The position numbers and the translations under genes are program-made. Positions 10,773 to 28,188 of a DNA stretch of 63,067 bases are shown piece by piece (position 1 is the first letter of the stretch; every line of letters starts with the position of its first letter). The DNA is from a virus (taxonomy: Duplodnaviria; Caudoviricetes), in the IMG/VR virus record IMGVR_UViG_3300017963_000288, positions 1-63,067 of that record; one strand, written 5' to 3'. The notes under the pieces are model-generated. The model was not told the DNA's origin, searched no databases, and saw nothing but the letters and a program-made list of their open reading frames with translations.

Positions 10773-10956
10773 AATTCACTCCTTCGCTTGTAAAGGTTTC
10801 TGGTTTGTCTATGTCGCGGAAGAACCGCGTCATCCCAACTCGGTCACTTTCGGCTTCGGCTCTACTCTTGTATGGGCCACAGTCAGGCTCGTTATCAGGT
10901 AGGCCGGTCACCCACCACGCACCGCCTCGCCAGATCGTTTCAAGGTCGACCGTCAT
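10756..10956 (-). CDS. hypothetical protein
   Basis: MTVDLE start; WW...CGPYKSRAEA pattern. Confidence 0.55.
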   Translation of the reverse strand: MTVDLETIWRGGAWWVTGLPDNEPDCGPYKSRAEAESDRVGMTRFFRDIDKPETFTSEGVNYGKRR

Positions 10957-11605
10957 CTTGTGTCCCCCCTGTTCCGCATTGTCCTCGTTGTAGGCCCGCA
11001 AGACCCCGACACGGCAACCGCTGCCGACACTGTTCGGCCAGTTCCACCACGAGCGGTTCGCTCGTCGTGGGCAGTTGCCAATCGTGGCTCCTTTCCCAGT
11101 CCACCTCCGGCCGGTTCTGCATCCAATAGAACACCCTGCCGCCACTGGTCTGCAATGTGAACGGTAAATGCCGCACCGGCAGCACCCAATTCGACAACGG
11201 CAAGTCTTTTTCCGGTCGTGAGGCCGCGTCAAGCGATAGATCGGCGAGGTAATAGGCGGTTTGAAGGATTAGGTGTCCGTTATATTTGGACCCGCTCCGC
11301 TCGTCGATCTGTACGATGTACGCCCCAGCGTCAGTCCACCTCGCGGCATCGGCTTCGCTCTTTGGCAGCTCCGCCTCGCGGTCGATCAATCGACACGCTG
11401 CGCCGTTGCAAGCGGCGTAAGCGCAGGGCACCGGCTCAGACCGGATGCCGAACAGGTCGAGAACGTGCATCGCTATCCTCGTCGACGCGATGCACGTCTC
11501 CCGAACCTTTGCACCCATCCCGACAAGCGTAGCCTCCCGCAAGTCGAAAGCCAAAGCCTCTAAGATGATCCGGTGCTTTTGTTTTTCACGCCGTAGGATA
11601 CTCAT
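10940..11605 (-). CDS. hypothetical protein (Cys...His...Asp arrangement suggests a transglutaminase-like fold; weak)
   Basis: GGAGG RBS; TCIASTR...GHLIL...ADLS. Confidence 0.5.
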   Translation of the reverse strand: MSILRREKQKHRIILEALAFDLREATLVGMGAKVRETCIASTRIAMHVLDLFGIRSEPVPCAYAACNGAACRLIDREAELPKSEADAARWTDAGAYIVQIDERSGSKYNGHLILQTAYYLADLSLDAASRPEKDLPLSNWVLPVRHLPFTLQTSGGRVFYWMQNRPEVDWERSHDWQLPTTSEPLVVELAEQCRQRLPCRGLAGLQRGQCGTGGTQDDGRP

Positions 11606-11657
11606 TGGGCCCTCCGTTAGTTCGGGGAATAGAATTCTCATGTGGGCTCTTGCTCGA

Positions 11658-11888
11658 TCAATACAACGACACTCGCCAGTATGCGCCGCAGCGTCGACAC
11701 CCGTGATCCAGATTTCCTGACTCCGGTCCACCGGAACTGCAATCCACGAGGTCGTGACCATGCAACGAGCACATCGCCGTGTTCCAAGCCGACTCCAAGG
11801 TGGCTTGGAACGTGGGAGAGTAGATGTCCCCGTGAAGGCGGAGCGGGTCGTCATCCCGCATTTCGGTGATTGTCAAGTTTGTGTGCAT
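11658..11888 (-). CDS. small Cys/His-rich protein
   Basis: AAGGAGATTAGCGATG leader; CSLHGHD...CRRCG. Confidence 0.6.
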   Translation of the reverse strand: MHTNLTITEMRDDDPLRLHGDIYSPTFQATLESAWNTAMCSLHGHDLVDCSSGGPESGNLDHGCRRCGAYWRVSLY

Positions 11889-11963
11889 CGCTAATCTCCT
11901 TGTGTGTTGTGGTTGGTTGTGGTTGCCCCACTCGCTAACCCTCGCTGTTTCTCGCGTCGCGGA

Positions 11964-12206
11964 TCACTTATGATCGACGACCTCCCGCGTCAAGACCTGG
12001 AGTACGAAGTGGTCTTGCCTCGCAACGAGAACAAGATCGTCAAGTACGCTCTCGATTGCATCGCGGTCATTCCGTCCTGTCACAACGCAGATGCGGTCAG
12101 TTATGGCCGCTATCGGGTTGTGGCTCGACCCTCCGATGTTTCGCCGCCGTTCATCGGCGACGATTTCATCAACGTTAGCCGTGTGGTTAAGGTTCGCGTC
12201 AACCAT
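11964..12206 (-). CDS. hypothetical protein, paralog of the 13181-13564 C-terminal domain
   Basis: AAGGAG RBS; shared GGSSHN motif. Confidence 0.65.
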   Translation of the reverse strand: MVDANLNHTANVDEIVADERRRNIGGSSHNPIAAITDRICVVTGRNDRDAIESVLDDLVLVARQDHFVLQVLTREVVDHK

Positions 12207-12254
12207 CGTTCACTCCTTGCTGGTTGGGGTTCGTTTGATTCATCGGCTCCGAGT

Positions 12255-12707
12255 CTATTTGTCATGCTTGTGCTTCCGACAGATTCGACGCTCGGTTCCT
12301 CGGATCACGGGGCCGTCAATCCCCGCCTCCTTGCAGACGCCGCAGATCATCCCGCTCGCGAACCATCCGCAGCACGCGCAATCGCGGTGCGTCTTGGGTT
12401 CTCGGCAGAGGCACTTGTCGTTCTTTTTCCGCGTCTTCGCTCGCTGCTTGTTTCGTTTGACTTCGGCAACCAGGGCGACCACCGCCTCTTTGCGCGTCAG
12501 AGTGCCGCCACGCCACACTTGACCATTGCGCAATCGCCACTCGTATGTCTCGCCACCGCCGCGCGAGGTCCGAACCGAACCGAGGGTGGCCGTTCGCCAC
12601 GCTCCGACCATCGGGGTCTTGCGTGTCCGAACCATGTAAGTGGTGGCCCCTTTCCAACTGTACCGATCCAGGTAGAGCGTCTTGCCATTTACTTTGATCG
12701 TCGCCAT
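12255..12707 (-). CDS. basic protein with C-terminal Cys cluster
   Basis: AAGGAGATTACGATG leader; CLC..CACCG..CGVC..C. Confidence 0.65.
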   Translation of the reverse strand: MATIKVNGKTLYLDRYSWKGATTYMVRTRKTPMVGAWRTATLGSVRTSRGGGETYEWRLRNGQVWRGGTLTRKEAVVALVAEVKRNKQRAKTRKKNDKCLCREPKTHRDCACCGWFASGMICGVCKEAGIDGPVIRGTERRICRKHKHDK

Positions 12708-12763
12708 CGTAATCTCCTTTTAGTTTTTTGGGGAACAAAAATAATACGAACGAACTCACTCAC

Positions 12764-13126
12764 TCAGAAGCCATAATGCTGCTCAGAGGGAAACGCCTCG
12801 GCAACAATCGCCTCACGCTCGGCAAAGGACAACCCCTCCACCCACTCCATTGCCTCGTCATCCTCCCCGTACATCGCAGGGAAGCCGGTAGCGAACCCGC
12901 AGCTCGTCACGCTATCGGCAACCTCATCCCCGCTCAACGTCACCCGCATCGTCGCCTCGACGCTCGGCTCCTTCGTGGGATACCCGGCTCGGGCCGCTGC
13001 GATTCCCTGCAAGGTATCGTATGCAATCGCGTCCCATGCCATGTGAAGGGCAGTTATCGCCCGCTCCCGCAAAGACCCAGAATGTCTCCGCCCTCTACAA
13101 CCTTTCGCCGCTCGTTTCAATTTCAT
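12764..13126 (-). CDS. hypothetical protein
   Basis: AAGGAG RBS. Confidence 0.6.
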   Translation of the reverse strand: MKLKRAAKGCRGRRHSGSLRERAITALHMAWDAIAYDTLQGIAAARAGYPTKEPSVEATMRVTLSGDEVADSVTSCGFATGFPAMYGEDDEAMEWVEGLSFAEREAIVAEAFPSEQHYGF

Positions 13127-13180
13127 CGCTCAACTCCTTATTGGTTATGGATGATCGTGATTGTCTCGCCAACCCACCCG

Positions 13181-13564
13181 CTAACCCTCGATTTCCGCCC
13201 GCAGCATCTTGTAGGAATCGTCGTCCTCCCGGCACGTCGCGACGAGACATTCGACCGCTTGTTCCAGGGCGATGAAGTCAGTTCGGCCGGAATAAAGGCC
13301 GATCCGATGGGACAATTCAGCCGGGACGTTATGGCTCGACCCACCGACGTAGTTGACCCCATCGGTGGCAACCGCGTCGCCAGCCCAGTCTTCCTCGACG
13401 GTATACGTCTCGTCTGGGTCTTCGTCGTCTTCCTTGAGTTCAATCAGATCACAAACCGCTTCGTCGATTGCTTTCAACATCGGCTTGTACCGTTTCAGCG
13501 TCTCGTCGCTCCAGTTTTGAACCTCGACAAGTTGTGCCAGAATTGAGTCAAAGAACTTTCGCAT
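13181..13564 (-). CDS. acidic hypothetical protein
   Basis: Its RBS lies in the repeat directly 3' of hammerhead 1. Confidence 0.7.
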   Translation of the reverse strand: MRKFFDSILAQLVEVQNWSDETLKRYKPMLKAIDEAVCDLIELKEDDEDPDETYTVEEDWAGDAVATDGVNYVGGSSHNVPAELSHRIGLYSGRTDFIALEQAVECLVATCREDDDSYKMLRAEIEG

Positions 13565-13567
13565 CGC

Positions 13568-13654
13568 TAATCTCCTTTGTGCTTGACTGTTTGGCTGCTC
13601 GTCAGACCTGGCCCGCCACGGCCGGATGATGGGGCGAAACTCGCCCCATTTCGC
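13568..13654. repeat. 87-bp direct repeat, copy 1 (ribozyme + RBS)
   Basis: 81/87 identical to 15120-15206 by manual alignment. Confidence 0.95.
13592..13654 (-). ncRNA. type II hammerhead ribozyme, copy 1
   Basis: GC-GAAA-UGGGGCGA(GUU)UCGCCCCA-UC^AUCCGGCC(GUGGCG)GGCCAGGU-CUGACGA-GC-AGCCA; complete catalytic core; predicted cleavage between 13628 and 13627. Confidence 0.85.
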
Positions 13655-13657
13655 TCT

Positions 13658-14305
13658 CTACCAAAACATGCCGAACCGCTCGACAATTCGGCTGACCCTC
13701 AAGCCCTCATCGTACTCTGCCGCGAGGATGACCTTCGCGATGTTCCGTACCGCTGCCCGTGAGCGGCGAGGGGAAGCGTAGTTGCGGCCGAGAATGATGT
13801 CAATTTCCTCGGCATATTCGCCACGACCGCAATGCTCGTCCTTCGTATAGACCGTGAACAATGGGCCATCGTTGAGTAAGTTTGTGCCCTGCGGCTTGCC
13901 CTGCCCGTCGAAAAACAGGATCGCCAAACAATACCCTCGCGGCGTATCGTGAACCTCAAGCCGTCGCGAACCCCCTCGCCGAAATGTCTTCGGTGCACCG
14001 TAGTCTGCCACTTTGCGGGACTTCCGGTTTGTATGTCGCTTCTGCCGCTTCTTCTGCCGTCTCGCTACGGCAACCTTTCCAACCGTAACGCCTTCCTCGT
14101 GCAGCGTCAGAACGAATCCCCTCGCCCGATACACCGTCCGTTCGGTATCATCCTTCGCTAAACCGAGGGTCCGCAGGATGTCCACGCGGGCTTGACGGGT
14201 GTGGCCATGGTCGTCAAAAGGATATGACAACCACCATGTTCTCGCCGCCGCGTTGTACCGCGTGACTCGGCATCCCAGTTTTCTCAGTCTCGTGATGACA
14301 TTCAC
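13658..14305 (-). CDS. hypothetical basic protein
   Basis: GTG start after an AAGGAG RBS; stop 3 nt before hammerhead 1. Confidence 0.6.
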   Translation of the reverse strand: MNVITRLRKLGCRVTRYNAAARTWWLSYPFDDHGHTRQARVDILRTLGLAKDDTERTVYRARGFVLTLHEEGVTVGKVAVARRQKKRQKRHTNRKSRKVADYGAPKTFRRGGSRRLEVHDTPRGYCLAILFFDGQGKPQGTNLLNDGPLFTVYTKDEHCGRGEYAEEIDIILGRNYASPRRSRAAVRNIAKVILAAEYDEGLRVSRIVERFGMFW

Positions 14306-14334
14306 AGTGAACTCCTTGTAAAGAAATGGATGTT

Positions 14335-14374
14335 GAAGAAATCGCCCAACCCGCCAGCGTTCGGTGGGCTGGGC
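14335..14374 (-). terminator. possible terminator/processing hairpin
   Basis: GCCCAGCCC...GGGTTGGGC stem followed by GATTTCTTC on the minus strand. Confidence 0.45.
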
Positions 14375-14421
14375 ACGGCCGCCGTCGTCGAGGGCATTTC
14401 GCATTAAGCGAGAAGAGGTCA

Positions 14422-15117
14422 TTACCACTCGGTGTCGATCCGCTCACAAACCGCCTTCCATTGCGCCAGGATCGCCAGCGGGCCGTTGTAGTCCGCGTAT
14501 GACAACAACCCGGCGAGCGCCCGAACCTCGCACTCTGTTCGGAAGTTACTCATCACTGACGAACTTCCATGACGGTACGGCCGTTCCTGCAAGGCGGCCG
14601 TCATACGCTGTCGGCAAACCTCGCTCGCCGCTGCCGCTTCCGCCAATGAGCATTCTTCCTGCAAGACTGCCCGCACGGTTTGCAACACGTTGTAGTAAGT
14701 GTAGGCGCGTCGCCGTCCGGCGTTGAGTAAGATGTCGTCCATATGCCACACCAGATAGTCCACGATGCCTTCCGACGGAATCTGCGGCTCTTGCTCTTTG
14801 TCGAAACGCTCCAACCACTTCGCCAATCGCTTCCGGGTGAATTCGCCGTGGTCCTCCATGTCCTCGGTCCGCTTTTGTTCCCGTTGACCCGCCCCCATCG
14901 CAGGCCGCACTTCGCAAGCGGCGACTTTGTAACGCGCTGACCCATCATCGGTCACTCTGACCTCAAGACCGTTTGCGTAGATGTGGTCGATACGCAAGAC
15001 GGCTTGCGCCCGCAGTCCGGGGTTGGCATTGATCTCGTCTGGGGACACGTCCACCAGCATTCCGACCTCCAGCTCCGTTCCCTTCCAACCGTTGATCTTC
15101 TGAATCGTGGTCGCCAT
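14422..15117 (-). CDS. hypothetical protein
   Basis: Its RBS lies in the repeat directly 3' of hammerhead 2. Confidence 0.7.
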   Translation of the reverse strand: MATTIQKINGWKGTELEVGMLVDVSPDEINANPGLRAQAVLRIDHIYANGLEVRVTDDGSARYKVAACEVRPAMGAGQREQKRTEDMEDHGEFTRKRLAKWLERFDKEQEPQIPSEGIVDYLVWHMDDILLNAGRRRAYTYYNVLQTVRAVLQEECSLAEAAAASEVCRQRMTAALQERPYRHGSSSVMSNFRTECEVRALAGLLSYADYNGPLAILAQWKAVCERIDTEW

Positions 15118-15119
15118 CG

Positions 15120-15206
15120 TAATCTCCTTTGTGCTTGACTATTTGGCTGCTCGTCAGACCCGGCCCGCCACGGCCGGATGACGGGGCGAAGCTTGCCCCG
15201 TTTCGC
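15120..15206. repeat. 87-bp direct repeat, copy 2
   Basis: Matches 13568-13654 at an offset of 1552 bp. Confidence 0.95.
15144..15206 (-). ncRNA. type II hammerhead ribozyme, copy 2
   Basis: GC-GAAA-CGGGGC(AAGCUUC)GCCCCG-UC^AUCCGGCC(GUGGCG)GGCCGGGU-CUGACGA-GC-AGCCA; GUC triplet; predicted cleavage between 15180 and 15179. Confidence 0.9.
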
Positions 15207-15212
15207 ACCATA

Positions 15213-15524
15213 TTAGAGTCGGCAACTGCTGATGGCTTCAATCCGTTCCTTTTGTTTCTTCGCTTCCTTCGCGTCTCGAATCGACTTCCTTTCGCTCTCG
15301 ACCAACTCATATAGAATCTCGGACAGGTCGTCGAACCACTCGCTGTCCGTCTCGGCGATTCGCTTCTCGGTTTCCTCTGCCTCCATATAGGCCGAGAAAG
15401 CCATTTCCTCGAACGTCTCGGCCAATTCCGCCATCACGTCAAGTGCTCCGTCCGGCGTGTGCGTGTAATGGGCACCACGGGCGAGAAGACGAGCGAAGCC
15501 TTTTGCGGTGTAGGTTCTAGCCAT
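15213..15524 (-). CDS. hypothetical protein, first gene of the early operon
   Basis: GAAAGGAG RBS before MARTY. Confidence 0.7.
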   Translation of the reverse strand: MARTYTAKGFARLLARGAHYTHTPDGALDVMAELAETFEEMAFSAYMEAEETEKRIAETDSEWFDDLSEILYELVESERKSIRDAKEAKKQKERIEAISSCRL

Positions 15525-15576
15525 GATCGTAGCTCCTTTCAAAATGGTTAAGAAAAATCTGCGTAATCATCCGCAA

Positions 15577-15653
15577 GGTGGGTTATTGGGAATCGAACCC
15601 AACTCGAACGTCGCGGCGTCTCCGCCACGTGTCTTGCACCAGCACCCAACCGA
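15577..15653 (-). ncRNA. tRNA-like structure lacking an anticodon loop
   Basis: T-arm UUGGG-UUCGAUU-CCCAA; acceptor UCGGUUG/UAACCCA (one mismatch); central arm CGUGGCG-GAGA-CGCCGCG; 77 nt. Confidence 0.55.
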
Positions 15654-15655
15654 AG

Positions 15656-15995
15656 AACTCCCATTCCGCCAATCCGGCCTTTCGCTTTCCCGAACGAGAG
15701 TCACTTCGATTCTTGTCGCGTCCCTGAGTCTTATGTCCGGCTCTGTGCCGACGCCTTTCCCCGACTCGCACCGTTATCGACGCTTACCATTACCTTCAAC
15801 GTCCGGTGGAGGGGGGCCAGCTTCGCAACGCACAACTCGGCGTGGGTCGATTTCTCTCCCCCTACCGCTCGTCGATTCGAGTTCGTTCGGACGTCTCGGC
15901 TTGTGGCCGGTTTCTCGACCTCGCTCACTTGGAGGTCATTGGTCGGACGTCCTACTTCGTGCTGTGCTTCGCTCATAAGAAGAATCGAAATGTAG
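15656..15995 (-). ncRNA. putative large structured non-coding/leader RNA
   Basis: 13-bp long-range helix 15992-15980/15714-15702 enclosing nested stems; separate 11-bp helix 15702-15692/15666-15656. Confidence 0.55.
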
Positions 15996-16019
15996 AATGT
16001 GTTATTCCTCATATATTAT

Positions 16020-16048
16020 AGATTAGAAAATCGCCGTAATTCCGTCAA
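16020..16048 (-). promoter_or_regulatory. sigma70-type promoter of the early leftward operon
   Basis: TTGACG-17nt-TAATCT, with an overlapping TATAAT just downstream; overlapped by inverted repeat AAATCGCCG(16028-16036)/CGGCGATTT(16057-16065). Confidence 0.6.
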
Positions 16049-16137
16049 GGGGAATCCGGCGATTTAGTGCGATTATCTGAAATTTTAAGTCATTATAAGC
16101 AAAGAACTTATGGCGACGAGCGGAAAATAATTGGAGA

Positions 16138-16620
16138 CTATGCCGGATTTTCCGGGGGTGACACCATGGCTATGGCGATTTTCCGTCCCAATTCAGGACG
16201 CCCCTGGCACAAGGCGAGCATGGCGACCTTCTTCTTCGTCTCTGGTGGCACCCCGCTGAAATCGCTTGACACGCCATCGACAAAAATCCGCGCCTTTATA
16301 CAACACCCGTCGCCGATCCCCAACAAGAGTTGCAGGGATGGGCAAACTTCCGCGAAGACACAAGTCGCTTCCCCATTTTTGTCGTAATCCAAGAGCGGGC
16401 ATGGCAGATCATAAGGCGAAACGCCAAGTTCTATCGCAATCGGGCAAACGACCGTGATACAACAGAATCCGCAACGTGTGCAATTGTTCGGAAAGGTCAC
16501 GCGACCCGCAGTACCCCCCGCCGAAAGTTTCCATTCCACAGGGGTTGATTGCATCGTTCGTCCAACTGCTGAATCGCCAGTTCCCGTTTCCGTCACCCTG
16601 CCGTTCGTTCCGTTTCCCAT
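16138..16620 (-). CDS. YkgJ-like CxxCxxCC cysteine-cluster protein
   Basis: CTRCGFCC...CP...CPLL...C; AAGGA RBS. Confidence 0.65.
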   Translation of the reverse strand: MGNGTNGRVTETGTGDSAVGRTMQSTPVEWKLSAGGTAGRVTFPNNCTRCGFCCITVVCPIAIELGVSPYDLPCPLLDYDKNGEATCVFAEVCPSLQLLLGIGDGCCIKARIFVDGVSSDFSGVPPETKKKVAMLALCQGRPELGRKIAIAMVSPPENPA

Positions 16621-17151
16621 GATAGATTTCCTTTCGTTGTTTCGCGTTCAGTTCTGTTATAACCTGGCGTTTTGCCGCTCATATCACGCCCCCATCTTTC
16701 CTGTGACTAACAATCCCTAACCCCCGGCCCTTATAATTACGTTGGCGGCCAATTCCTACGGCGACAACCAACGTCGTCGAGGACCTTCCGTGATGGAACA
16801 CAGACTCCTTTTCCAGCGTGTCGGGATCACTCCGACGCTGTGGCGTTTGGGCTGTACGTGTGCCTTGGCCGCTTCCGGTGCCACCACGCCGTTTGCCAAT
16901 CTGGGCTATATTCGCCGAACCTAGTGTCAAGAACGGCTGAATTTCCGAAATTCTTTTGCGATGGGCTTGTATCACGTATGATGCGAGTTATAATTCAAAA
17001 GACGCTCATGGTTCCTCGTGAGGTCGGGGGCGGTTCGGTGCCTACAAGTTTCTGACCGCCCCACTATTATATCGTCACCGAATCACCAAGGAAGGTCATC
17101 ACCTCTACGCGAATTTCTCATTTCCGAAATTCAACGCCTTGGAACCATGAC

Positions 17152-18036
17152 ATGAAAGCAATCATTACCGGCGGCGCAGGATTCATCGGCCACCATTTAG
17201 TGACCTCTTTACTCGCCAGGGGCGATCAAGTCCTGGTTATTGATGACCTATCAACCGGGAGAGCCGATCCGACGATATACGGCCGCCTACTCGTTCACGA
17301 CATTACGATGCCGATCCGCCATGACCTCGAACAGTTCGCCGATGCGAGCGTTATGTTCCATCTTGCCGCCAAAGCGCGTGTACAGCCCAGCATAGCCGAT
17401 CCGATCTACTTCAATCAGACCAATGTCGTCGGCACCCTGCGAATGCTATGGTTGGCAAAAGAACTCGGCATTCGCCGTTTCGTATTCGCATCGAGTTCAT
17501 CCGTCTACGGCAATTGCAATACAATGCCATTGTCTGCCGAACAGACCAAACCTAACCCAATCTCCCCATACGGTCTACAAAAACTTATCGGCGAACAATA
17601 CTGCCGGTTATTCTCATCGCTATACGGCGTCGATACCGTCTGTTTGCGATTTTTCAACGTGTATGGCGATGGGATGTCTCACGGTCAATATGCGATGGTC
17701 ATCCAAAAGTTTCTTGACCAGCGCGAATTGGGAGAATTGTTGACGATCTATGGTGACGGAAGTCATCGGCGAGATTTCACTCATGTTAGTGACATCGTAC
17801 GCGCGGTCATCCTTGCCGGGGATCGCAAACGACCGTTCGAGGGCAAACCACTCAACGTCGGTCGCGGATCGAATGTCTCGGTTGCCGAGTTTGCCGCAAT
17901 GGTTGGCGGTCCAACTAGGTATCTTCCGGCAGTGCCCGAACCAGCCGAGACGCTTGCAGGGATCGCGACAACGAAGACGGAATTGAGTTGGGAGCCGGTG
18001 GTTGATCTTCAAACGTGGCTTGAGTCCACGGGATGA
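17152..18036 (+). CDS. NAD-dependent UDP-glucose 4-epimerase-like SDR
   Basis: ITGGAGFIG, FHLAA, SSSSVYG, PYGLQK, LRFFNVYG, RDFTHVSD. Confidence 0.92.
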   Translation: MKAIITGGAGFIGHHLVTSLLARGDQVLVIDDLSTGRADPTIYGRLLVHDITMPIRHDLEQFADASVMFHLAAKARVQPSIADPIYFNQTNVVGTLRMLWLAKELGIRRFVFASSSSVYGNCNTMPLSAEQTKPNPISPYGLQKLIGEQYCRLFSSLYGVDTVCLRFFNVYGDGMSHGQYAMVIQKFLDQRELGELLTIYGDGSHRRDFTHVSDIVRAVILAGDRKRPFEGKPLNVGRGSNVSVAEFAAMVGGPTRYLPAVPEPAETLAGIATTKTELSWEPVVDLQTWLESTG

Positions 18037-18129
18037 TCTTGTGACAATTCGGGCAGATGTAGGGTCGTGGCTTCCCTTTGCGTCGCGTAACGACGGTTCC
18101 TCGATGTTCGTGACACTCGGCTACCCAGA

Positions 18130-18333
18130 TCATAGTATCGCTTTCAACAGGGCGTGGCGTTGAAAGTCATCGACAGACACCCCAAAAACCCGCGTCCAGT
18201 TTACACCGGACGCGGGCGGCTTTTCTACCCAACCCCGAGTCAACAACAACTGCACAAGTTGTTTGGGCTCCTTGGGTTTAGGTAACGTCGGCCCACTATG
18301 GACCGGCGAGATAATCGGCGGCAAGGAACTCAA
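18130..18333 (-). CDS. hypothetical protein
   Basis: Small ORF in the minus-strand chain. Confidence 0.35.
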   Translation of the reverse strand: MSSLPPIISPVHSGPTLPKPKEPKQLVQLLLTRGWVEKPPASGVNWTRVFGVSVDDFQRHALLKAIL

Positions 18334-18997
18334 CGCATCGCCCCTGGCTTATTTCGGGGCCATCGTCCGCATGCCGCTGCTTCATTCGCTGCAACGCTTG
18401 GTCGAAAATCTCCCGCTGTTCTTTGGTGACGCTAATTGGTCGCCCCATGGTGGGCCGCTCTGAATCGTCCGAGATTGGCCCCTGGACGCCCTGGCTGACC
18501 ATGGGGATGGATTGTCCTATTCGAGGTCTTGCTGCCGTTAGCGTGGACGAGGCGGGCTCTGACGGCAATTCTGGGGGGATTAGGTCGGCAATCAGTCCAT
18601 CTAATTGCCCATCGGTCCATCCAAGTCCAGACAACGACACGCCTTCGCTCTGGAGCCGGTCGAGGATGTCGGACAATTCCGGCATATTCCAGGACGCTAG
18701 TTCTGCCGTTCGATTCAATGTCACAGCTAGAGCATCGGCCTCTATTTCGCTCACTTCCAAGAATACGACGCGGCAGAACGGCCATTTTAGCTCACGCATG
18801 GCCGCGTAGCGACCACAGCCATGAATGATCGTCTTATCGGCTTTGCGTACGAGGATCGGCTCTGGTTGGCCGAACGTCCGCAGGCTCTCTTTGATCGCGG
18901 CGATATTTTCTGCCGAGTGCTTGCGCGGGTTCTGCTCGGGCAGCGACAATTCGCGCAGGGCCACTTGCTCGATCTTTAGGTTCTGACCGCGAGCCAT
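18296..18997 (-). CDS. ParB-like nuclease-domain protein
   Basis: NPRKHS..NIAAIKESLRTFGQPEPILV...IIHGCGRYAA...LNRTAELASW. Confidence 0.85.
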   Translation of the reverse strand: MARGQNLKIEQVALRELSLPEQNPRKHSAENIAAIKESLRTFGQPEPILVRKADKTIIHGCGRYAAMRELKWPFCRVVFLEVSEIEADALAVTLNRTAELASWNMPELSDILDRLQSEGVSLSGLGWTDGQLDGLIADLIPPELPSEPASSTLTAARPRIGQSIPMVSQGVQGPISDDSERPTMGRPISVTKEQREIFDQALQRMKQRHADDGPEISQGRCVEFLAADYLAGP

Positions 18998-18998
18998 A

Positions 18999-19457
18999 TC
19001 ATCCCTTCGAGCCGTTCGACTTCCATGCGCTGACCGATCCGAACAAGCGGACGGCCATCCACATGCACCAGCGGCGCCACAACGGTACGCCGAGGCGGTG
19101 CATCGCATCGCGAAAGATCGCATCAGCCAGCCATCGCGAGCACCACGGAACCGCAATGGAGTAGAGGTAATCGTGAAGCACGGCCGCTCGATTCCATTTG
19201 CCGGAGGGCGGGAAGATCGACCACAGCGGGATACCGAGGTAGTGTGTCCATCGTGGGATACGACGGAGAATCCAATTCGGCAGCGACCCTACGCCGATCC
19301 AACGAGGTACGCTCGCAAAGTCGGTGATGAATCCGGCTGGCACGGTCAGCGTGTGGCCGGGGAAGACTTCGTATTCCAGCGGCTCCAATAATTTCCAACG
19401 CTGCCGACCATCGACAACATCGTATTCTTCAAGTCGCAGCTTTCCGCTGAACTTCAC
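18999..19457 (-). CDS. DUF1353-like protein
   Basis: VPAGFITDFASVP...AAVLHDYLY...ADAIF...AVRLFG. Confidence 0.85.
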   Translation of the reverse strand: MKFSGKLRLEEYDVVDGRQRWKLLEPLEYEVFPGHTLTVPAGFITDFASVPRWIGVGSLPNWILRRIPRWTHYLGIPLWSIFPPSGKWNRAAVLHDYLYSIAVPWCSRWLADAIFRDAMHRLGVPLWRRWCMWMAVRLFGSVSAWKSNGSKG

Positions 19458-19544
19458 GTTGTAGTCTCCGCTTGTGTAGAGCCTTTCGCGAAAGGTTTTT
19501 CTTGCGGCCGGATTGTCGGTGCCCCTTCACTCGCCGTCTGCGTC

Positions 19545-19775
19545 TCATCGCCGCCACCGCCTCCATTGGGAAAAGACCCGGCGACGAGCAGGGGGATAGC
19601 TGCGCCGCCGGGCGTCAAGGGATGCGTCTTGCCTCCGCAGGGAAGCGTCTTCTTTGGTGCCGCTGACTGGGGGATTGCGGTAACAACGGCCACCCGCGCA
19701 TTGCGCCGCTGACCATCGCGGAGACAAGAGGGCAGATAGCCCAACGACAATAAACAGCACGACCGTTCGCATCAC
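19545..19775 (-). CDS. small exported/basic protein
   Basis: Signal-peptide-like N-terminus, QCAGGRC motif, Arg-rich tail. Confidence 0.5.
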   Translation of the reverse strand: MMRTVVLFIVVGLSALLSPRWSAAQCAGGRCYRNPPVSGTKEDASLRRQDASLDARRRSYPPARRRVFSQWRRWRR

Positions 19776-19993
19776 CCACTCCTTGCAATAGGGTCATCTG
19801 GTTCGACGTGGACGCCATTCAGCTTGAGGATAAACACGTCCCTGCCTTGTTCAGGCACTCGCTCGACTCGCAAGCCGTCGCTGCGCAACGCGCCGCGAAG
19901 TTCCGCTAACAACCGGCGAGCATCACAAGCCGCCGCCTTTGCTTCGTTCGCCGCTGCAATCACAGCGGCCCTTGCTGGTCCTACTCGCATCAT
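19772..19993 (-). CDS. hypothetical protein
   Basis: ATGA overlap with the peptidase gene. Confidence 0.5.
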   Translation of the reverse strand: MMRVGPARAAVIAAANEAKAAACDARRLLAELRGALRSDGLRVERVPEQGRDVFILKLNGVHVEPDDPIARSG

Positions 19994-20847
19994 GCCACCG
20001 TAATCAGACTCGGGGGAAGATGGAAACCTTGGAGGTTGGGGTGCCAGATAGAGGTCGCGGCGTAGACGCCATAGCCGAGCAATCTGCTCGACAGGGTATC
20101 ATAGCCGTAGCCGTCATCACCCCAATCGCCCCAACTATTCTGATACATGACGTACCACCGCCCGTTTCGCCAGACGAGGGCAACGGCGCAGATTGCGTGA
20201 CCGCTCCGGCCATAGCTGACCGGAATATCAAGCAACAGACAAGTGGCGAATTGCTCAACGGTGGTCAACTTCACATACTCGGCGATTCGGAATTGCTTGG
20301 CGATCTCCTGCCAACCGTCCGGTCGCGGGTTGCTCCGTTGTGAAAACCCCACATCTTTCAGGACGAGCGAACCGAACCGCGCGCGGTTCGCTGGGGTATC
20401 GCTGGGGATGAATCCCACATCGCGAGCCTTGGTGAGATTGCAAGACAAACTCGATCCGCTCCCGCTCGATGACCCGCAAAGCTGGTAGAGCGACATCGGC
20501 GAAAACGACACCCAAAAGGACCGGCCGAACGTCTTGACGAGGACATACTCGTATCCTCGCGTCTGATCGTTGCTGGTACACGACCCCTCGCCGTCCTGGT
20601 CTTTCGTGGGAAGCTCAAGGCTGCGCAAGCTGTACCCTTGCTTTGCGTCGAAAACCTCCTTCCAGTCGTCCTCGGCGATGACGTTAATGCCCGAGGCGGA
20701 GAATGGGGTTGCGGCGATAATCTCGTCCCTCGCCGCTTCGGTTTCTTCGATGCAACCGAGCATCCGGCCACAGTCTTTGGCCGACTTAACAAAGTCAACG
20801 TCGATCCACTCCGGCTTCAACTCTTGCGGTATTGCGCCAGCTACCAT
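19990..20847 (-). CDS. papain-like (C1) cysteine peptidase
   Basis: DQDGEGSC (Gln/Cys), GHAICAV (His), QNSWGDWGDDGYG (Asn). Confidence 0.9.
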   Translation of the reverse strand: MVAGAIPQELKPEWIDVDFVKSAKDCGRMLGCIEETEAARDEIIAATPFSASGINVIAEDDWKEVFDAKQGYSLRSLELPTKDQDGEGSCTSNDQTRGYEYVLVKTFGRSFWVSFSPMSLYQLCGSSSGSGSSLSCNLTKARDVGFIPSDTPANRARFGSLVLKDVGFSQRSNPRPDGWQEIAKQFRIAEYVKLTTVEQFATCLLLDIPVSYGRSGHAICAVALVWRNGRWYVMYQNSWGDWGDDGYGYDTLSSRLLGYGVYAATSIWHPNLQGFHLPPSLITVA

Positions 20848-20851
20848 CGCA

Positions 20852-21601
20852 TCAGCCTCCGAACTCTGCGACCTTGGCCTTGAGGTCTGGGATTGTCGAC
20901 GGGCTCGGGCCGTGCCACAGGATTCGGTGGGGCGGCTCGTTCTCGATCAGAAACAAGGTCGGGGTGGGGTCGTCGTTTCGTCGCTTCGCCTGATAGGGCG
21001 CATACGCCGACTGCTTCGCATCGTCGTCCGCATCCTTTATCACATGCTCCCTGAATAGCCCCCCCTTCTGCTCGGCTCGCAGCCGAGTGAAAAACGTCGC
21101 CCACCCAGCCGCCACCAAGGGATCGGCCGTCGAGTCCGGCGTCTGCTCCCGCAGGAAAAGGAGGTAGCGGGGGCCCTTCTCTGGAATCGGTGGCACCGGA
21201 GGGTCCGGCTCAGGTACCTCCCCGACCTGGATCGCACGAAACGCCACAGGCAAGACCGCTTTCGTCTTGTCAGTCCGGTCAATCGCAAAGACGAACGTCA
21301 CGCCGGGCTCGGCCGGTGCCGTCACTTCGGCTTCGATTGTCACTTGGAATCCATCGGGCACGATCCGCATACGAAGTTCAACCCCGAGCAATTCGTTTTC
21401 ATGCTGAACCTGAACCTTCCGGACCTCATTCACGATGTCGGCAATCGTGCTCGTCTCGGTCAGGTCGAACGTCGCGCCGTCAATCTCGACCAAAAAGGTT
21501 TCTCGCGGGGCCACCTTATCGGGGCCACGGATCGAAAGGGCCGCGTGAAGTGTGGAGGCAATCGCCAACACAACAAGCACCGCTAAGACAAGGCGTTTCA
21601 T
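20852..21601 (-). CDS. exported protein with Pro-rich linker
   Basis: MKRLVLAVLVVLAIASTLHA signal peptide; PEPDPPVPPIP. Confidence 0.75.
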   Translation of the reverse strand: MKRLVLAVLVVLAIASTLHAALSIRGPDKVAPRETFLVEIDGATFDLTETSTIADIVNEVRKVQVQHENELLGVELRMRIVPDGFQVTIEAEVTAPAEPGVTFVFAIDRTDKTKAVLPVAFRAIQVGEVPEPDPPVPPIPEKGPRYLLFLREQTPDSTADPLVAAGWATFFTRLRAEQKGGLFREHVIKDADDDAKQSAYAPYQAKRRNDDPTPTLFLIENEPPHRILWHGPSPSTIPDLKAKVAEFGG

Positions 21602-21631
21602 GGCTTGCTCCGTTAGTGTGAAACGGTACGA

Positions 21632-22066
21632 TCAAGCGACAAGCACAAACACACCGGGCGGCGCGGCTGCAATAATCGGCGGCTGCGCGGTATCGACGAA
21701 GAGTGGCAAAAACTTGAGGATCAATTCAAGAAGTCGCTCGATGAAATCAAGCAGCGCATCCCAGTTAATTGCCGCCGCTTCTTCTTGAAATGCTTTTGGG
21801 TTCTCGTTAGTCAATACTGTGAGAACCTGCGCGGAGGCGACGGCCGGATCATCCGACAGCTCCCCTTTCTTCTTGAGGTCAATCGCTATGCGTCGCACGT
21901 TCCGAAACGTCACGCCGAGCTTGCGTCGCTGGCGTCTTGTGAGTGACCCTACGTCATCGTCATCGGTTGTCACTACGGGCTTGTCGTCCACCGTGATTGT
22001 ATCGGCCGCATAGAGTGGCGATGTCAAGAACACGAAGCAGAGCAGAAGAATGAGCAGTCGCTTCAT
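21632..22066 (-). CDS. exported/membrane protein
   Basis: MKRLLILLLCFVF signal peptide; amphipathic WDALLDFIERLLELILKFLPLF; AAAGGAG RBS. Confidence 0.75.
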   Translation of the reverse strand: MKRLLILLLCFVFLTSPLYAADTITVDDKPVVTTDDDDVGSLTRRQRRKLGVTFRNVRRIAIDLKKKGELSDDPAVASAQVLTVLTNENPKAFQEEAAAINWDALLDFIERLLELILKFLPLFVDTAQPPIIAAAPPGVFVLVA

Positions 22067-22109
22067 GGCGAGGCTCCTTTCGCTGATTGGAGGGGGTTGC
22101 TTTCTCGTA

Positions 22110-22270
22110 TTTCTACCATGGCTAGCTTGCGTGTCAAGACCAAGCTGATTGACCCCGATAAGCTGGACGGCTCGTAGGGAGAACAGGGGGGCATCGTTAG
22201 GTATTTCGTCGCCGTCAAAATCGTTGGTTTTGTCGCTGGTTATTTGACCAAATCGGTCCAGAGGTATAAT
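22110..22270. promoter_or_regulatory. divergent promoter region
   Basis: Minus strand TTGACA(22137-22132)-16nt-TAGAAA; plus strand TTGACC(22244-22249)-15nt-TATAAT(22265-22270). Confidence 0.45.
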
Positions 22271-22369
22271 TGAGCGCATGGCTATGGCCACAAAATCACC
22301 CCCCCCGTTGGGGCAAACAACGTGATAATTTATCAGGTTGCCCCGCCAATCACGAAGGAGTACGGACGC

Positions 22370-23341
22370 ATGAGTATCAAAAATGTACGGATCGACCGGA
22401 TTGAAGTTGACCTCTCCGTTTTGCCTCGCTGCAACGAGAACGACCCACTGATTACGGAATACGCCAACCTACGCCGAGTCGGTATTGAGTTTCCACCAAT
22501 CGTGATCTTCCGCGACGCCGATGGTGTGCATTGGCTGGCCGATGGTCACAAGCGGCTTATGGCAGAACGGACCTTGGAAAACAACGTAATACGTGCATCC
22601 GTCCGGAAGGGTGACCAGAGTCGTGCCCGCTGGTTCGCGGCTGGAGCCAACAGCGAACACGGGCAGCGAATGACCACCGCCGATTGCAGACAGGCGATTC
22701 AGAATTGTCTCAACGACAAAACGCTTGCCGATAAGAGTGACGCCGTGATTGCCGATCACATCGGTTGTAGTAGATCGACGGTTCAAAAGGTCCGCCACAC
22801 GTTAGAAAAACAAGGTACCATTCAAAAGGTCGAGAAACGCACGGGCAAAGATGGGCGCACGCGAGCATCGAGTTCACCACAACCAACCACGGCCCGCCAG
22901 GGTCGCCCCTCTACTGCCAAAACACAAGTCATAAAGGCGAAAGAATTGAAGGACGAACTCGGGCAGGAGTGTCCCGAGTTTCTTCGGCAAATCATCGCCG
23001 ACACACAAGACATCAAACGGCTGCTGACGGAGCACGCGGCGATCTATCAGCGATGGGAACAATTTGCGAGTTTGAAGAGTGGGGCGGGGCAAGGGTTGCA
23101 TGTTCGGTCCATGATCGACGTTGGGAAGGAAGAACGGCTCGCGGCACAGAATGGCATGTTCTATTGTCGCTGCCCAAATTGTTGGGATAAGGCCACACGA
23201 CCCACGAAATGCCTTTGCGGTGGCAAAGGTAAGGGCGAAAAAAAATACGTCGATCCAAAAGGTGAAAAACACGACAAAGCCCCCGGTTGGTTGACGCGAG
23301 AAGAATACCACGCATACCTGTCACACACACGAGGGGCATGA
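22370..23341 (+). CDS. ParB-like N-terminal domain + HTH protein with C-terminal Cys cluster
   Basis: FPPIVIF...WLADGHKRL...ANSEHG; SDAVIADHIGCSRSTVQKVR; AAGGAG RBS. Confidence 0.85.
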   Translation: MSIKNVRIDRIEVDLSVLPRCNENDPLITEYANLRRVGIEFPPIVIFRDADGVHWLADGHKRLMAERTLENNVIRASVRKGDQSRARWFAAGANSEHGQRMTTADCRQAIQNCLNDKTLADKSDAVIADHIGCSRSTVQKVRHTLEKQGTIQKVEKRTGKDGRTRASSSPQPTTARQGRPSTAKTQVIKAKELKDELGQECPEFLRQIIADTQDIKRLLTEHAAIYQRWEQFASLKSGAGQGLHVRSMIDVGKEERLAAQNGMFYCRCPNCWDKATRPTKCLCGGKGKGEKKYVDPKGEKHDKAPGWLTREEYHAYLSHTRGA

Positions 23342-23723: not shown

Positions 23724-23918
23724 ATGCGGTGCGACAGGTGCGGTGAGGCAAGCGGCGCGTTTACGATGTCGCGTTTTAATACCGAGATGATCTGCCTGCA
23801 ATGCGAAGAAAAGGAGCAGGCGCATCCCGAATACAAGAGAGCCTGCGAAGTCGAGCACGCGCAAGTGATAGCGGGCAACTACAATTATCCGGGTATCGGC
23901 AAGCCGGAGGACTTATGA
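23724..23918 (+). CDS. small zinc-binding phage protein
   Basis: CDRCG...MSRFNTEMICLQC...HPEY...GNYNYPGIG; AGGAG RBS. Confidence 0.75.
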   Translation: MRCDRCGEASGAFTMSRFNTEMICLQCEEKEQAHPEYKRACEVEHAQVIAGNYNYPGIGKPEDL

Positions 23919-25786
23919 CTCTGCGACAATATCAGCGCGACGCAATGATGGCGGTCATTGCAGACATTCAGTCAAAGGAACGTACACTTGTCTCCATGCC
24001 AACCGGCGTAGGCAAGACGGTGTTGGGTGCGGCACTTGCCGACTGGTGGGGCGAGAACGCCCATCGTTTCGGCATGTCGGCTCGCGTCCTTTGGTTGGCA
24101 CACAGGGACGAGCTGGTCTGGCAAGCGGCGAGAGCGCTTGAACTCGCGACCGGCGAGGAAGTTGCGGTGGAGAAATCCGATTCGCGAGCGAGAGCGACAG
24201 CGGCAATGTTCGACCGGCGCATCGTGGTTGGGAGCGTCCAGACATTGTTTCAAGAGGACCGTCGTGATAGCTTTGGACACGACGAGTTCGGCCTGATTGT
24301 AGCGGACGAGGCTCATCACTACGTTGCTCCCGCTTTTCGCGACGTAATTGACTATTTTCACGCAGCCAAGACGGTTGGATTGACGGCGACAACGGATCGA
24401 CACGACCAGATTAGTCTGGGTCAGTTGTTCGAGGGATGCGCGTACCACTATGACGTGATGCAGGCAATCGAGGACGGCTGGCTCTGCCGATTGCGCCAGG
24501 AGTACGTTGAGGTGGAGGGCCTTGATTGGTCTTCGGCCCGCAAGAGCAGCACGGGCGACTTGTCGGCAACGGACATAGACCGGATCATAAACGAAGAAAC
24601 GGTGCTCCACAAGATCGTGGTGCCTTGCGTTCGCTTGGCTGGTGATCGTCCGACTCTCGTCTTTACCCCGAGCGTCGCGACCGCGAAGGCGATAGCCGCG
24701 ATCATCCCACGCTACACAAAGGCGGGAGCGGCTGCGATCTGCGGGGACACCCCGGAGGATGAACGCCGCCGATTGGTCGATCAATACAAAGAGGGGCATT
24801 TCCAGTTTCTTGTCAACTGTATGGTCTTGACCGAGGGGTTCGATGCCCCAGCGACGGCCTGTATCGTGATGGCAAGGCCAACGAACTCTCGGACGCTCTA
24901 TGCACAGGCAATCGGCCGAGGTTTGCGCGGTGGGCACCGCTGCCCGATTCCTGGCAAGAAGGATTGTCTGATAGTCGATCTTGTCGGAGCATCGCTCAAG
25001 CACCAACTCTGCACGTCCTCTGACATACTGACGGGCAACTTTCACGAGGTCGTGCAAGAGGCCGCAAGGGGCATGCTCCGCGAGCCGCGCGAAGATGACG
25101 AGGAATCCCCTGATGTTGTCAATGCGGTCTTGGCAGCGATTGCCAACGAGGAACAGCTACGCCGGGAGCGACGCAAGAAACTGATTGCAGAGGCGAAACT
25201 CAAGCGGACAGCAGTAGACCCGTTCGGCGTCCTCGCGATGCCGGAAGTCGATCTGCCGGAGCCGGGTTTCTGGGGCGATGAATTTGTAACAGAGAAGGCA
25301 AAGGCCACGCTCGAACAAGCAGGAGTGAATACCAAGGGATTGACGCGGCTTGAGGGTGAGCGATTGGTTCGGGAGTTACGAAGGCGGGCCGAGTGTGGTA
25401 TATGCACATTCAAACAGGCGAGGCACTTGCGAGCGTGGGGTTTCGATCCGTCTATGAGTTTGATTCAAGCGAACGTGATTATCAGTAAACAATTTGCTCG
25501 GCGGAGTCGAGCGTACATTCAACCGGAGGACGCAAAGCGAAAGCACTACGCGAAGAAGCGGGGGCAAATGGTCACATACGAGGAATTGGCTTGGACGCCT
25601 ATGTGGTCGCTTGGCGAGGGCATCGAGTGTGTCGTCTGTCGCGATGGGGGCGAGCCGGTCAATCACAGAACAACCAAGCGAACGCATTTCAAGCATGGGC
25701 GAGTGGATGGAAACCTCGTCACGCTAGTAGACGACCGTGGATGGACGATCCAAACAACGGTAGATAAAGTGGACAGACTAAAATGA
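23915..25786 (+). CDS. superfamily 2 DEAH helicase
   Basis: LRQYQ, PTGVGKT, DEAHH, GLTAT, LTEGFDAP, QAIGRGLR. Confidence 0.95.
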   Translation: MTLRQYQRDAMMAVIADIQSKERTLVSMPTGVGKTVLGAALADWWGENAHRFGMSARVLWLAHRDELVWQAARALELATGEEVAVEKSDSRARATAAMFDRRIVVGSVQTLFQEDRRDSFGHDEFGLIVADEAHHYVAPAFRDVIDYFHAAKTVGLTATTDRHDQISLGQLFEGCAYHYDVMQAIEDGWLCRLRQEYVEVEGLDWSSARKSSTGDLSATDIDRIINEETVLHKIVVPCVRLAGDRPTLVFTPSVATAKAIAAIIPRYTKAGAAAICGDTPEDERRRLVDQYKEGHFQFLVNCMVLTEGFDAPATACIVMARPTNSRTLYAQAIGRGLRGGHRCPIPGKKDCLIVDLVGASLKHQLCTSSDILTGNFHEVVQEAARGMLREPREDDEESPDVVNAVLAAIANEEQLRRERRKKLIAEAKLKRTAVDPFGVLAMPEVDLPEPGFWGDEFVTEKAKATLEQAGVNTKGLTRLEGERLVRELRRRAECGICTFKQARHLRAWGFDPSMSLIQANVIISKQFARRSRAYIQPEDAKRKHYAKKRGQMVTYEELAWTPMWSLGEGIECVVCRDGGEPVNHRTTKRTHFKHGRVDGNLVTLVDDRGWTIQTTVDKVDRLK

Positions 25787-27051: not shown

Positions 27052-27338
27052 TGAGCGAACGCAGCCTAGACGGCACCCGCTGCCGCCACTGCAACTATTT
27101 TCCATGTCGTTGCAGGGAGATTGTGGATTCTTTGCCTAAGACAAAAGACGGGGTGCCGATTTGGATTGGTGACACTGTCTGGATTCTCGGCGAGGATCGG
27201 CAAATCGACAAGATCGTGATAACCGGCATCCTTATGACGGTGGGCTTAATGCGGCTAGAAAACGCCGAGGACATTGACGCATACCCCGAGTGGGCATACT
27301 CCACCAGCGAAGCCGCCGAACAGGCAAAGGAGGAGTGA
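27051..27338 (+). CDS. hypothetical protein (cassette array)
   Basis: Starts MSERS, ends AEQAKEE. Confidence 0.7.
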   Translation: MSERSLDGTRCRHCNYFPCRCREIVDSLPKTKDGVPIWIGDTVWILGEDRQIDKIVITGILMTVGLMRLENAEDIDAYPEWAYSTSEAAEQAKEE

Positions 27339-27372
27339 GTGGTGGACGAGGGGGGAAGGTATAATAAGAACT

Positions 27373-28188
27373 ATGAGTGACCAAATTGACCATCTATCGA
27401 CAACGCAACTCCTAATGTTGGCACGTTGTCCACATCAATGGAAGCGACGGTACGCGGATGGTGATCGCCGCCCTCCCGGTATTGCACTTCTCGTCGGTGG
27501 TAGTGCCCATCGTGGCTACGAAATAGCCATGGAACACAAGTTGACCCACCATACCGATTTGCGGGCAACTGACGTAGTTGATGCGGCTGTGGCGGCGTTC
27601 GACTCACACCGCACACAAGAGGACATCACATTCACGGCAGACGAGGCGGCTCGCGGGTCACGGATTGTTATTGCGGAAACGCGGGATCGCATTGCGGCAC
27701 TCACGCACTTCTGGTCACTAAACGTCCAGCCAGATTATCAACCAATGTCCGTGGAACAGGAATGGCGGATTTTGCTGCCAAAGCTAGGGACGGCACTTGT
27801 TGGCGTTACCGACATGGTTACGGTCAACCGGGAAGTCGTGGACTGGAAAACTGGCAAGCGGCGAATATCACGCAGAGAATGTGATACCTCCCTGCAATTG
27901 ACCGCCTACGCGTTTGCGTTCCATAAAGCCTATGGTGAGCCACCCGTAAACGTCCGATTTGAGCAATTGGCGGAAGTCGAGGCGGCGACCCAGCGATATA
28001 ACCTTGTGTCGGTAAGATCGTGGCGTGACTATACGTGCCTTCTTGCTCGCTGTGAACAGGCGGTGCGGCTTATCCGAACAGGCATTTTTCCACCGGGCCT
28101 ACCGGGCCAATGGTGGTGTTCCCAAAAATGGTGCGGATACGCATCTACGTGCCCGTACTACAACCCAGAACGAGACAGGGAGACATGA
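27373..28188 (+). CDS. PD-(D/E)XK RecB/Cas4-like exonuclease
   Basis: HLS...CP, GVTDMV...VVDWKTG, QLTAY, C..WCGY...CP. Confidence 0.85.
   Translation: MSDQIDHLSTTQLLMLARCPHQWKRRYADGDRRPPGIALLVGGSAHRGYEIAMEHKLTHHTDLRATDVVDAAVAAFDSHRTQEDITFTADEAARGSRIVIAETRDRIAALTHFWSLNVQPDYQPMSVEQEWRILLPKLGTALVGVTDMVTVNREVVDWKTGKRRISRRECDTSLQLTAYAFAFHKAYGEPPVNVRFEQLAEVEAATQRYNLVSVRSWRDYTCLLARCEQAVRLIRTGIFPPGLPGQWWCSQKWCGYASTCPYYNPERDRET

Follow-up and report, generated by a model that had tools for sequence, protein, structure and literature searches.

Paired Type II Hammerhead Ribozymes between Small Genes of an Uncultured Tailed Phage: Predicted Transcript Punctuation and Recombination at the Motif in Close Relatives

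This analysis concerns a pair of type II hammerhead ribozymes, HH2 (the upstream copy) and HH1 (the downstream copy), on the minus strand of the IMG/VR virus contig IMGVR_UViG_3300017963_000288 (63,067 bases, class linear, estimated completeness 69%; the whole contig is called the window below). Judged by model scores and core nucleotides, both elements are full-length type II hammerheads and make a well-formed pair, bracketing two genes, gA and gB. We propose that HH1 and HH2 are probably functional and transcribed with the minus-strand operon, whose message they would cut into separate segments as a constitutive punctuation. The arrangement, and the interpretations offered for it in a first-pass annotation of the window, have been in print since 2011, and HH1 and HH2 are ordinary family members in an ordinary position. 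The reason why phages keep self-cleaving ribozymes between genes has been an open question since that year, and the window provides a clean, typical example. The main addition made here is a crossover mapped inside the ribozyme in close relatives; in addition, the rule that these elements sit between a stop codon and a ribosome-binding site (RBS) is confirmed in about a hundred phage copies.

Results

The window was compared with Rfam 15 (4227 families) using Infernal. Both elements score well above the gathering score of 37 bits for RF02276 (Hammerhead_II) (Table 1), and both span model positions 1-66 of 66. They are the only Rfam matches in the window, at the gathering threshold as well as at E<=1, a level at which no other ribozyme or RNA family was found across the window; tRNAs are likewise absent from it, and RF02276 gave 0 matches in 14 control genomes. 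With R1, a model of our own described below, HH2 scores 71.9 bits and HH1 65.8 bits, and a scan of 10800-22400 with filters off for a third or decayed hammerhead gave nothing else above 10 bits. The string GCGAAAUG in the gA-gB spacer, considered as a hammerhead remnant, was ruled out by the same scan. The hammerhead assignment follows from the RF02276 scores above the cut-off together with the intact core.

The core that the first-pass annotation had read on the minus strand is present in both copies: GAAA, CUGACGA, an NUC cleavage triplet (GUC in HH2, 15182-15180; AUC in HH1, 13630-13628) and a stem II of 2 bp, GC/GC. The topology is type II, with stems I and III capped and stem II open. In each copy, stem III is a GC-rich hairpin, stem I has 8 bp and is capped by the 6-nt loop GUGGCG, and the tail reads AGCCAAA. 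The pairs adjacent to the core are A-U in stem I, G-C in stem II and A-U in stem III, the last being A15.1-U16.1, in which an A of GAAA pairs with U in both copies. The strings needed for the suggested pseudoknot are also there, since UGGC of loop I can pair with GCCA of the tail in HH1 and HH2. The minimum-energy fold of HH2 is the hammerhead fold, and folding of HH1 in a 150-nt context keeps stem III and the inner part of stem I.

Each ribozyme belongs to one copy of a direct repeat of 87 nt, and the two copies were found as first described, with 93% identity, six mismatches and 1552 nt from start to start. Two of the six differences form a compensated change of the stem III pair 15.2-16.2 (C-G versus U-A), two are in stem III, in its distal stem or loop, another is in the spacer that follows the tail, and the last gives HH1 an internal C.A mismatch in stem I, at the fourth pair, which cmscan flagged. 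The earlier view that the differences respect the structure thus holds for the stem III pair and fails for stem I. The compensated pair is real, but it is the second pair of stem III; the core-adjacent A15.1-U16.1, to which the change had been ascribed, is invariant.

The surroundings of the two copies are equally regular. The gU stop codon TAA (15215-15213) ends 4 nt before HH2 and the gB stop codon TAG (13660-13658) ends 1 nt before HH1; the next ATG follows 23 nt after HH2 (gA) and 24 nt after HH1 (gC), each preceded by AAGGAG. It is the ribozymes that fit between stop codon and RBS, as the repeats had been said to do; the 87-nt repeat itself runs 21 nt past the ribozyme into the RBS. The predicted cuts coincide with the expected sites at 15179 and 13627 and would place the 5'-OH ends 62 and 63 nt before the start codons, where about 60 nt had been estimated. 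Cleavage at both sites would, as also foreseen, release an RNA of 1552 nt with two complete genes, and both genes have homologs of about 77% identity. The RBS at the end of each repeat is part of a translation-start module, AAGGAGATTA, which the window contains 4 times where 0.06 occurrences would be expected; all four are on the minus strand and lie between 11.9 and 15.1 kb. HH1 and HH2 are followed by one and the same spacer type, a third type unlike those of the relatives described below, which points to a conversion tract reaching from the ribozyme to the RBS.

Table 1. Positions of the ribozymes, repeats, neighboring genes and hairpins in the window
Feature	Position	Strand	Description
HH2, type II hammerhead, upstream copy	15141..15208	-	RF02276 67.2 bits, E 8e-12; predicted cut 15180/15179
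HH1, type II hammerhead, downstream copy	13589..13656	-	RF02276 56.2 bits, E 6e-9; predicted cut 13628/13627
Direct repeat copy 2, 87 nt	15120..15206	-	Ribozyme and 21-nt spacer ending in RBS module AAGGAGATTA (15129-15120)
Direct repeat copy 1, 87 nt	13568..13654	-	Ribozyme and spacer ending in RBS module AAGGAGATTA (13577-13568)
AAGGAGATTA translation-start module	11892-11901, 12710-12719, 13568-13577, 15120-15129	-	Only in the small-gene block
g15731	15731-16012	-	Open reading frame upstream of gU
gU, 109 aa	15213..15542	-	Open reading frame; stop ends 4 nt before HH2; without known family
gA, first cargo gene, 231 aa	14422..15117	-	Open reading frame; without Pfam or PHROG match
gB, second cargo gene, 215 aa, GTG start	13658..14305	-	Stop ends 1 nt before HH1
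gC, 127 aa	13181..13564	-	Open reading frame starting 24 nt after HH1
Strong hairpin (9+3 bp) followed by GAUUUCUU	14344..14374	-	Fold; between gA and gB; candidate terminator or 3'-end stabilizer
Terminator-like hairpin followed by ATTTTTCTT	15559-15576	-	Follows the tRNA-like element directly; gU starts 16 nt further on

The same subfamily is widespread in phage contigs. More than 118 IMG/VR contigs contain a 16-nt motif that spans core and tail. When RF02276 was run on 49 whole records behind such contigs, 35 of them had a match above the cut-off and 11 carried two or three same-strand copies. The R1 model was built from 36 sequences, and copies were taken at E<=0.001 from the window and 99 loci. 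This gave 103 copies (98 distinct), with at least one copy in 77 of the 99 loci and two or three copies in 20, always on one strand and spaced by 92-5520 nt.

Among the 98 distinct phage copies, standard pairs fill 95.7% of cells, compared with 76.6% in shuffles and 29-43% for slid partners, in an alignment fitted to R1, which favors nested stems. Changes on both sides occur at 16 of 20 pairs, and stems I and III covary. The pseudoknot columns lie outside the model; the four pseudoknot pairs are standard in 90-100% of the copies, with one-sided changes in all but one sequence and a tail fixed by the motif sampling, so that this result is one of conservation and not of covariation.

Placement was scored for the 91 copies in other phage loci that have enough flank. 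An upstream stop codon lies within 15 nt in 84 of them (median gap 0.5 nt), and a Shine-Dalgarno sequence with a start codon lies within 80 nt downstream in 71 (median 11 nt). Both features are found together in 66 of the 91 copies, compared with 9% of 1820 random positions in the same loci, at which an upstream stop is found in 31% and the downstream signals in 32%. Family membership, correct placement and conservation of the elements are thus observed.

Two variants from this sample may be recorded. A weak type II hammerhead at L028:4695-4759 (minus strand; 27.7 bits by R1, with an RF02276 match of 37 bits in the same record) has UAAG and CUUA in loop and tail instead of UGGC and GCCA, the sole compensated pseudoknot variant in the sample. 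L004:938-1094 and L043:5516-5672 each hold two tandem type II hammerheads, 92-95 nt from start to start, without a gene between them.

Close relatives of the window were found in one metagenome scan, as three contigs (L122, L123 and L124) that encode gA at 77% identity. No close relative was found by DNA in the GenBank phage collection, nor by searching it with the gA or gB protein; in IMG/VR neither gA nor the ATPase gave a close relative, and the helicase gave only one locus, at 24% identity. A 25-nt stem I pattern searched in viral and genome contigs did not yield one either. The three contigs carry five hammerheads of 62-68 bits. Nucleotide identity to the window is 61% for gU and about 81% for gA, gB and gC, and a gU counterpart with 34% identity directly precedes a hammerhead in all three. 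The catalytic core is invariant in all seven copies of this clade. Stem I is the same as in HH2, and so intact, in four of the five relative copies; the fifth (L122, 4111-4177) has a one-base change that keeps the pair as G-U.

As the first-pass annotation had proposed, the content between the ribozymes was compared. The ribozymes are kept, and the genes between them differ in order and number: two in the window, five in L122 and three in L124. In the window the order of transcription is g15731, gU, HH2, gA, a 116-nt spacer, gB, HH1 and gC, followed by the open reading frames 12764-13126, 12255-12707, 11964-12206 and 10940-11854, named here by their first coordinate. From gU onward the window therefore reads gU-HH-gA-gB-HH-gC-12764-12255-11964-10940, L122 reads gU-HH-gX-gA-12764-12255-gB-HH-gC-10940 (L123 is the same as far as it reaches), and L124 reads gU-HH-gC-12255-gB-HH-gA-12764-10940. 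Both gU and gB are always found directly 5' of a hammerhead; the gene after the hammerhead varies and is either gA, preceded by gX in L122 and L123, or gC.

An alignment of the seven copies separates two types at each end of the ribozyme. Copies after gU begin with CG and have the stem III loop GAGCTTC, while copies after gB begin with GTG and have the loop AACGCTT. At the 3' side, copies leading to gX or gA have the tail CCACAG followed by TTACAACC, while those leading to gC have the tail CCAACC followed by AATCACA. All four combinations of 5' and 3' types are present among the four ribozyme copies of L122 and L124, which requires at least one crossover between the stem III loop and the tail. 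The stretch in which it falls is identical over 44 nt within L124, the longest exact shared stretch. Other rearrangement joints fall on the RBS module AAGGAGATTA(G)CGATG, which precedes most genes here. The chimeric ribozyme copies bear out the suggestion that the repeats could act as recombination points.

Two further features of these contigs were noted. The gene gX is a small extra open reading frame with its own RBS module between hammerhead and gA (L122:1521-1797 and L123:5724-6000); it is absent from the window and L124, with the deletion joint in the RBS module. About six tandem CGTTT pentamers stand just upstream of the gU RBS in L122 (about 1080-1120), and also in L123 and L124; the window is without them.

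Discussion

We propose that each copy would fold into hairpins for stems III and I, the 2-bp stem II, and a pseudoknot of 4 bp that joins UGGC of loop I to GCCA of the tail, and would cut itself after C15180 in HH2 and after C13628 in HH1. The cuts would separate gU, gA-gB and gC into different RNAs. In the upstream products, the gU and gB messages, the last element would be the GC-rich hairpin of stem III, bearing a 2',3'-cyclic phosphate; in the downstream products, the gA and gC messages, the 5'-OH would sit on the stem I hairpin, at the head of a constant 62-63-nt leader that insulates the RBS. In bacterial mRNA decay, such ends hinder 5'-end-dependent attack by RNase E or RNase J as well as 3' exonucleases. 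Hindered decay would uncouple the stability and translation of neighboring cassettes, and with defined ends and an insulated leader each segment would have a stability and translation of its own, independent of its neighbors. We infer in this that transcription runs through both sites, that cleavage takes place in vivo, and that it affects stability and translation.

Several points weigh against this proposal. The transcript, the cleavage and the RNA ends are all predicted from sequence alone, in an uncultured phage. HH1 carries the C.A mismatch in stem I, and its minimum-energy fold in isolation loses the outer stem I and is not the full hammerhead. The hairpins at 14374-14344 and 15576-15559, with their U-runs, may end transcripts before one or both ribozymes. 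The pseudoknot, moreover, hardly covaries in the sample, its changes being one-sided apart from a single sequence.

An alternative is that the motifs persist mainly as DNA, either as portable homology blocks or as selfish intergenic repeats, and that RNA cleavage is incidental and without benefit. The chimeric ribozyme copies in the relatives are in its favor, as is the finding that the window copies are alike beyond the ribozyme as well, in a 21-nt spacer and RBS that are otherwise unrelated, a likeness suggestive of conversion; the four occurrences of AAGGAGATTA, all confined to this region, point the same way. However, nucleotides needed only for catalysis are invariant in 7/7 clade copies and the stems vary by compensated changes, a combination that indicates selection on the RNA and not on DNA homology. 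The stop-codon-to-RBS placement is far from random, and hammerhead junctions have no excess of mosaic joints over neighboring junctions. We therefore regard this explanation as unlikely.

Still less probable is a conditional switch, in which cleavage would be slow or regulated and would switch gA-gB and gC on and off at the level of translation or decay. Regulated cleavage of phage hammerheads was raised by Perreault et al. (2011, PMC3088659), and the weakened stem I of HH1, whose isolated fold competes with the hammerhead fold, would fit such a switch. Yet the copy that follows gB in the relatives keeps its stem I whole, which makes the mismatch look like a flaw particular to one lineage, and both window copies fit the 66-position consensus end to end, without a ligand-binding or sensor extension.

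A circular coding RNA, for which both ribozymes would cut and a host RtcB-type ligase would join the 1552-nt gA-gB RNA into a translatable circle, is very improbable, and this part of the first-pass annotation found no support. The end chemistry of hammerhead products (5'-OH and 2',3'-cyclic phosphate) fits RtcB, RtcB is widespread among prokaryotes, PF01139 (RtcB) being found in 10 of the 14 control genomes, and both genes on the piece are complete and have RBSs of their own; a circular two-gene mRNA, if true, would be a bacterial-virus counterpart of the circular RNAs made by ribozymes. Against it, the 63-kb record (estimated 69% complete) encodes no RtcB, the terminal 80 nt of the two ends pair no better than shuffled sequence does, 87% of 300 shuffles equaling or exceeding them, and the junction would be a complete hammerhead, built from the 5' half of HH1 and the 3' half of HH2, and so would cleave again. 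In viroid-like and retrozyme circular RNAs the ends are held by an open helix or a rod-like fold, whereas here, with type II topology, nothing but the 2-bp stem II would bridge them. No fixed unit is conserved, as the inter-ribozyme content differs in the relatives (two, three or five genes), and Perreault et al. sought circular or spliced products of such arrangements and detected none (PMC3088659).

The proposed punctuation of the transcript by HH1 and HH2 is in line with published work on related systems. Type II hammerheads are reported to be common in bacteria, and many have pseudoknots in which at least four pairs link loop I to the nucleotides that follow stem II; several hammerheads flank single genes or short blocks of them in prophages, and the role proposed there was to process long phage transcripts into mRNAs the length of an operon or a gene (PMC3088659). 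Tandem prophage hammerheads cleave in vitro according to the same report, and those in the Agrobacterium arrangement also cleave in E. coli. The prophage clusters described there resemble the window in the type II fold, in a pseudoknot of loop I with the 3' tail (putative in the window), and in same-strand copies flanking changing genes. The window can be placed among such clustered phage hammerheads, with two same-strand copies 1552 nt apart flanking gA and gB in a tailed-phage contig. What differs is that the window represents a new uncultured phage with new cargo genes, and that crossover within the ribozyme in relatives is not described in the consulted sections of that paper.

Olzog et al. 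(2021, PMC8782182) report that three type II hammerheads beside phage-like genes of Desulfovibrio vulgaris cleave both in vitro and in vivo. Their position beside phage-like genes is similar to that in the window, and two of them lie about 310 nt apart according to the figure legend. Compared with these active copies, cleavage in the window is only predicted, and HH1 has the stem I mismatch.

The insulating leader has a likely counterpart in synthetic biology. RiboJ is reportedly an engineered hammerhead insulator derived from a plant satellite RNA and used in synthetic operons. As it is said to do there, a hammerhead just upstream of the RBS would remove upstream RNA and leave a constant leader; the one in the window is natural.

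To judge by the recombinant copies of the close relatives, the ribozyme motif has a further use, at least now and then, as a crossover site when small genes are shuffled. More specifically, there is an about even, perhaps marginally better, chance that its invariant core of about 45 nt is one short shared intergenic sequence at which small-gene cassettes exchange by homologous recombination, AAGGAGATTA being another. One objection is that a single contig of 12.3 kb, L124, shows the alternative gene order, while two contigs have the other type. The L124 order is an alternative path through a graph with two repeats and may be an assembly chimera at a repeat. Misassembly is opposed by the differences between L122 and L124, which amount to 0.3-4.5% per gene, by the shortness (44 nt) of the longest exact shared stretch, by the lack of gX in L124, and by the different joint before 10940.

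A second objection comes from the wider sample. Only one flank is shared at the hammerhead in 85 of 102 related pairs and at the next hammerhead-free junction in 24 of 33, pairs that are not independent; at the level of flank families the mosaic fractions are similar, 10/14 and 7/14 compared with 6/9 and 4/7. Hammerheads as preferred mosaic joints in general were accordingly rejected, since there is no specific excess over neighboring hammerhead-free junctions. The similar fractions indicate that these gene regions are mosaic at every junction, and a special role of the ribozyme cannot be claimed from them. A literature search on hammerheads and phage recombination or mosaicism found no description of this for hammerheads, which does not prove that none exists.

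In mechanism, the PeSL cassettes of T4-type phages appear to be the closest analogue, as a resemblance and not as membership. In these, recombination between repeated promoter-terminator elements is reported to shuffle genes and make DNA mini-circles (Arbiol et al. 2010, PMC2839356). As in the window, the elements are repeated and regulatory and lie in intergenic regions among small genes of unknown function (PMC2839356; Comeau et al. 2014, PMC4122927). Recombination between copies that rearranges the flanked genes is likewise seen in the metagenome contigs L122 and L124. The composition differs, as PeSL is described as a promoter and a terminator stem-loop, while the 87-nt repeat of the window is a ribozyme and an RBS and lacks the sigma-70 early promoter; a consensus scan reported no promoter-like site at either repeat.

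Genomic Context

The record carries genes of a tailed phage, namely a tape measure protein (55266-57491), a DNA helicase (23801-25786), an exonuclease (27274-28188) and ParB-like proteins. The ribozymes lie in a minus-strand gene block that runs from about 22.3 kb down to position 1, in agreement with the GC skew. For the ten open reading frames around the ribozyme site, Pfam gave 0 matches, and the sole PHROG match was a weak one of gC to phrog_14226, a PHROG of unknown function. Pfam, PHROG and Atlas searches gave no usable match for the function of the cargo genes gA and gB. Both look like real genes, given their protein homologs P0002 (gA, 77% identity) and P0004 (gB, 77-79%). The C-terminal 70 or so residues of gB are shared with two shorter proteins. 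The possibility that gA and the 150-aa product of 12255-12707 are paralogs was rejected: they share 21 nt across RBS and start codon, and the proteins are unrelated.

The hairpin at 14374-14344 was not listed by a consensus terminator scan. Upstream of the ribozymes, a promoter-like site (16010-16048, minus strand) consists of TTGACG, a 17-nt spacer, TAATCT, 7 nt and the ATG of g15731, in a layout that recurs in L123 and L124. A consensus promoter scan did not report it; it could be the start of a leaderless transcript, about 830 nt upstream of HH2.

Between g15731 and gU, a cloverleaf-like element of about 74 nt (15577-15650, minus strand) is also found in L122 (455-575) and L124 (3259-3379). 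Its acceptor-like stem has 7 bp, its long arm carries a 4-nt loop where an anticodon loop would be, and its 6-bp T-arm ends in the 7-nt loop TTCGATT or TCCGAAT. RNAalifold on the three sequences gave 34 pairs, 9 of them changed on both sides, and neither ARAGORN nor Rfam called the element. Within the ribozyme operon it may act as a tRNA-like processing signal, or it may be a small RNA.

Elsewhere in the window, a long run of sugar-modifying genes, unusual on a phage contig, extends over about 30000-52000 on the plus strand and 1165-2571 on the minus strand. It includes at least four glycosyltransferase-like proteins, a B12-binding radical SAM protein (39459-40676) and a sulfotransferase-like protein (34361-34993).

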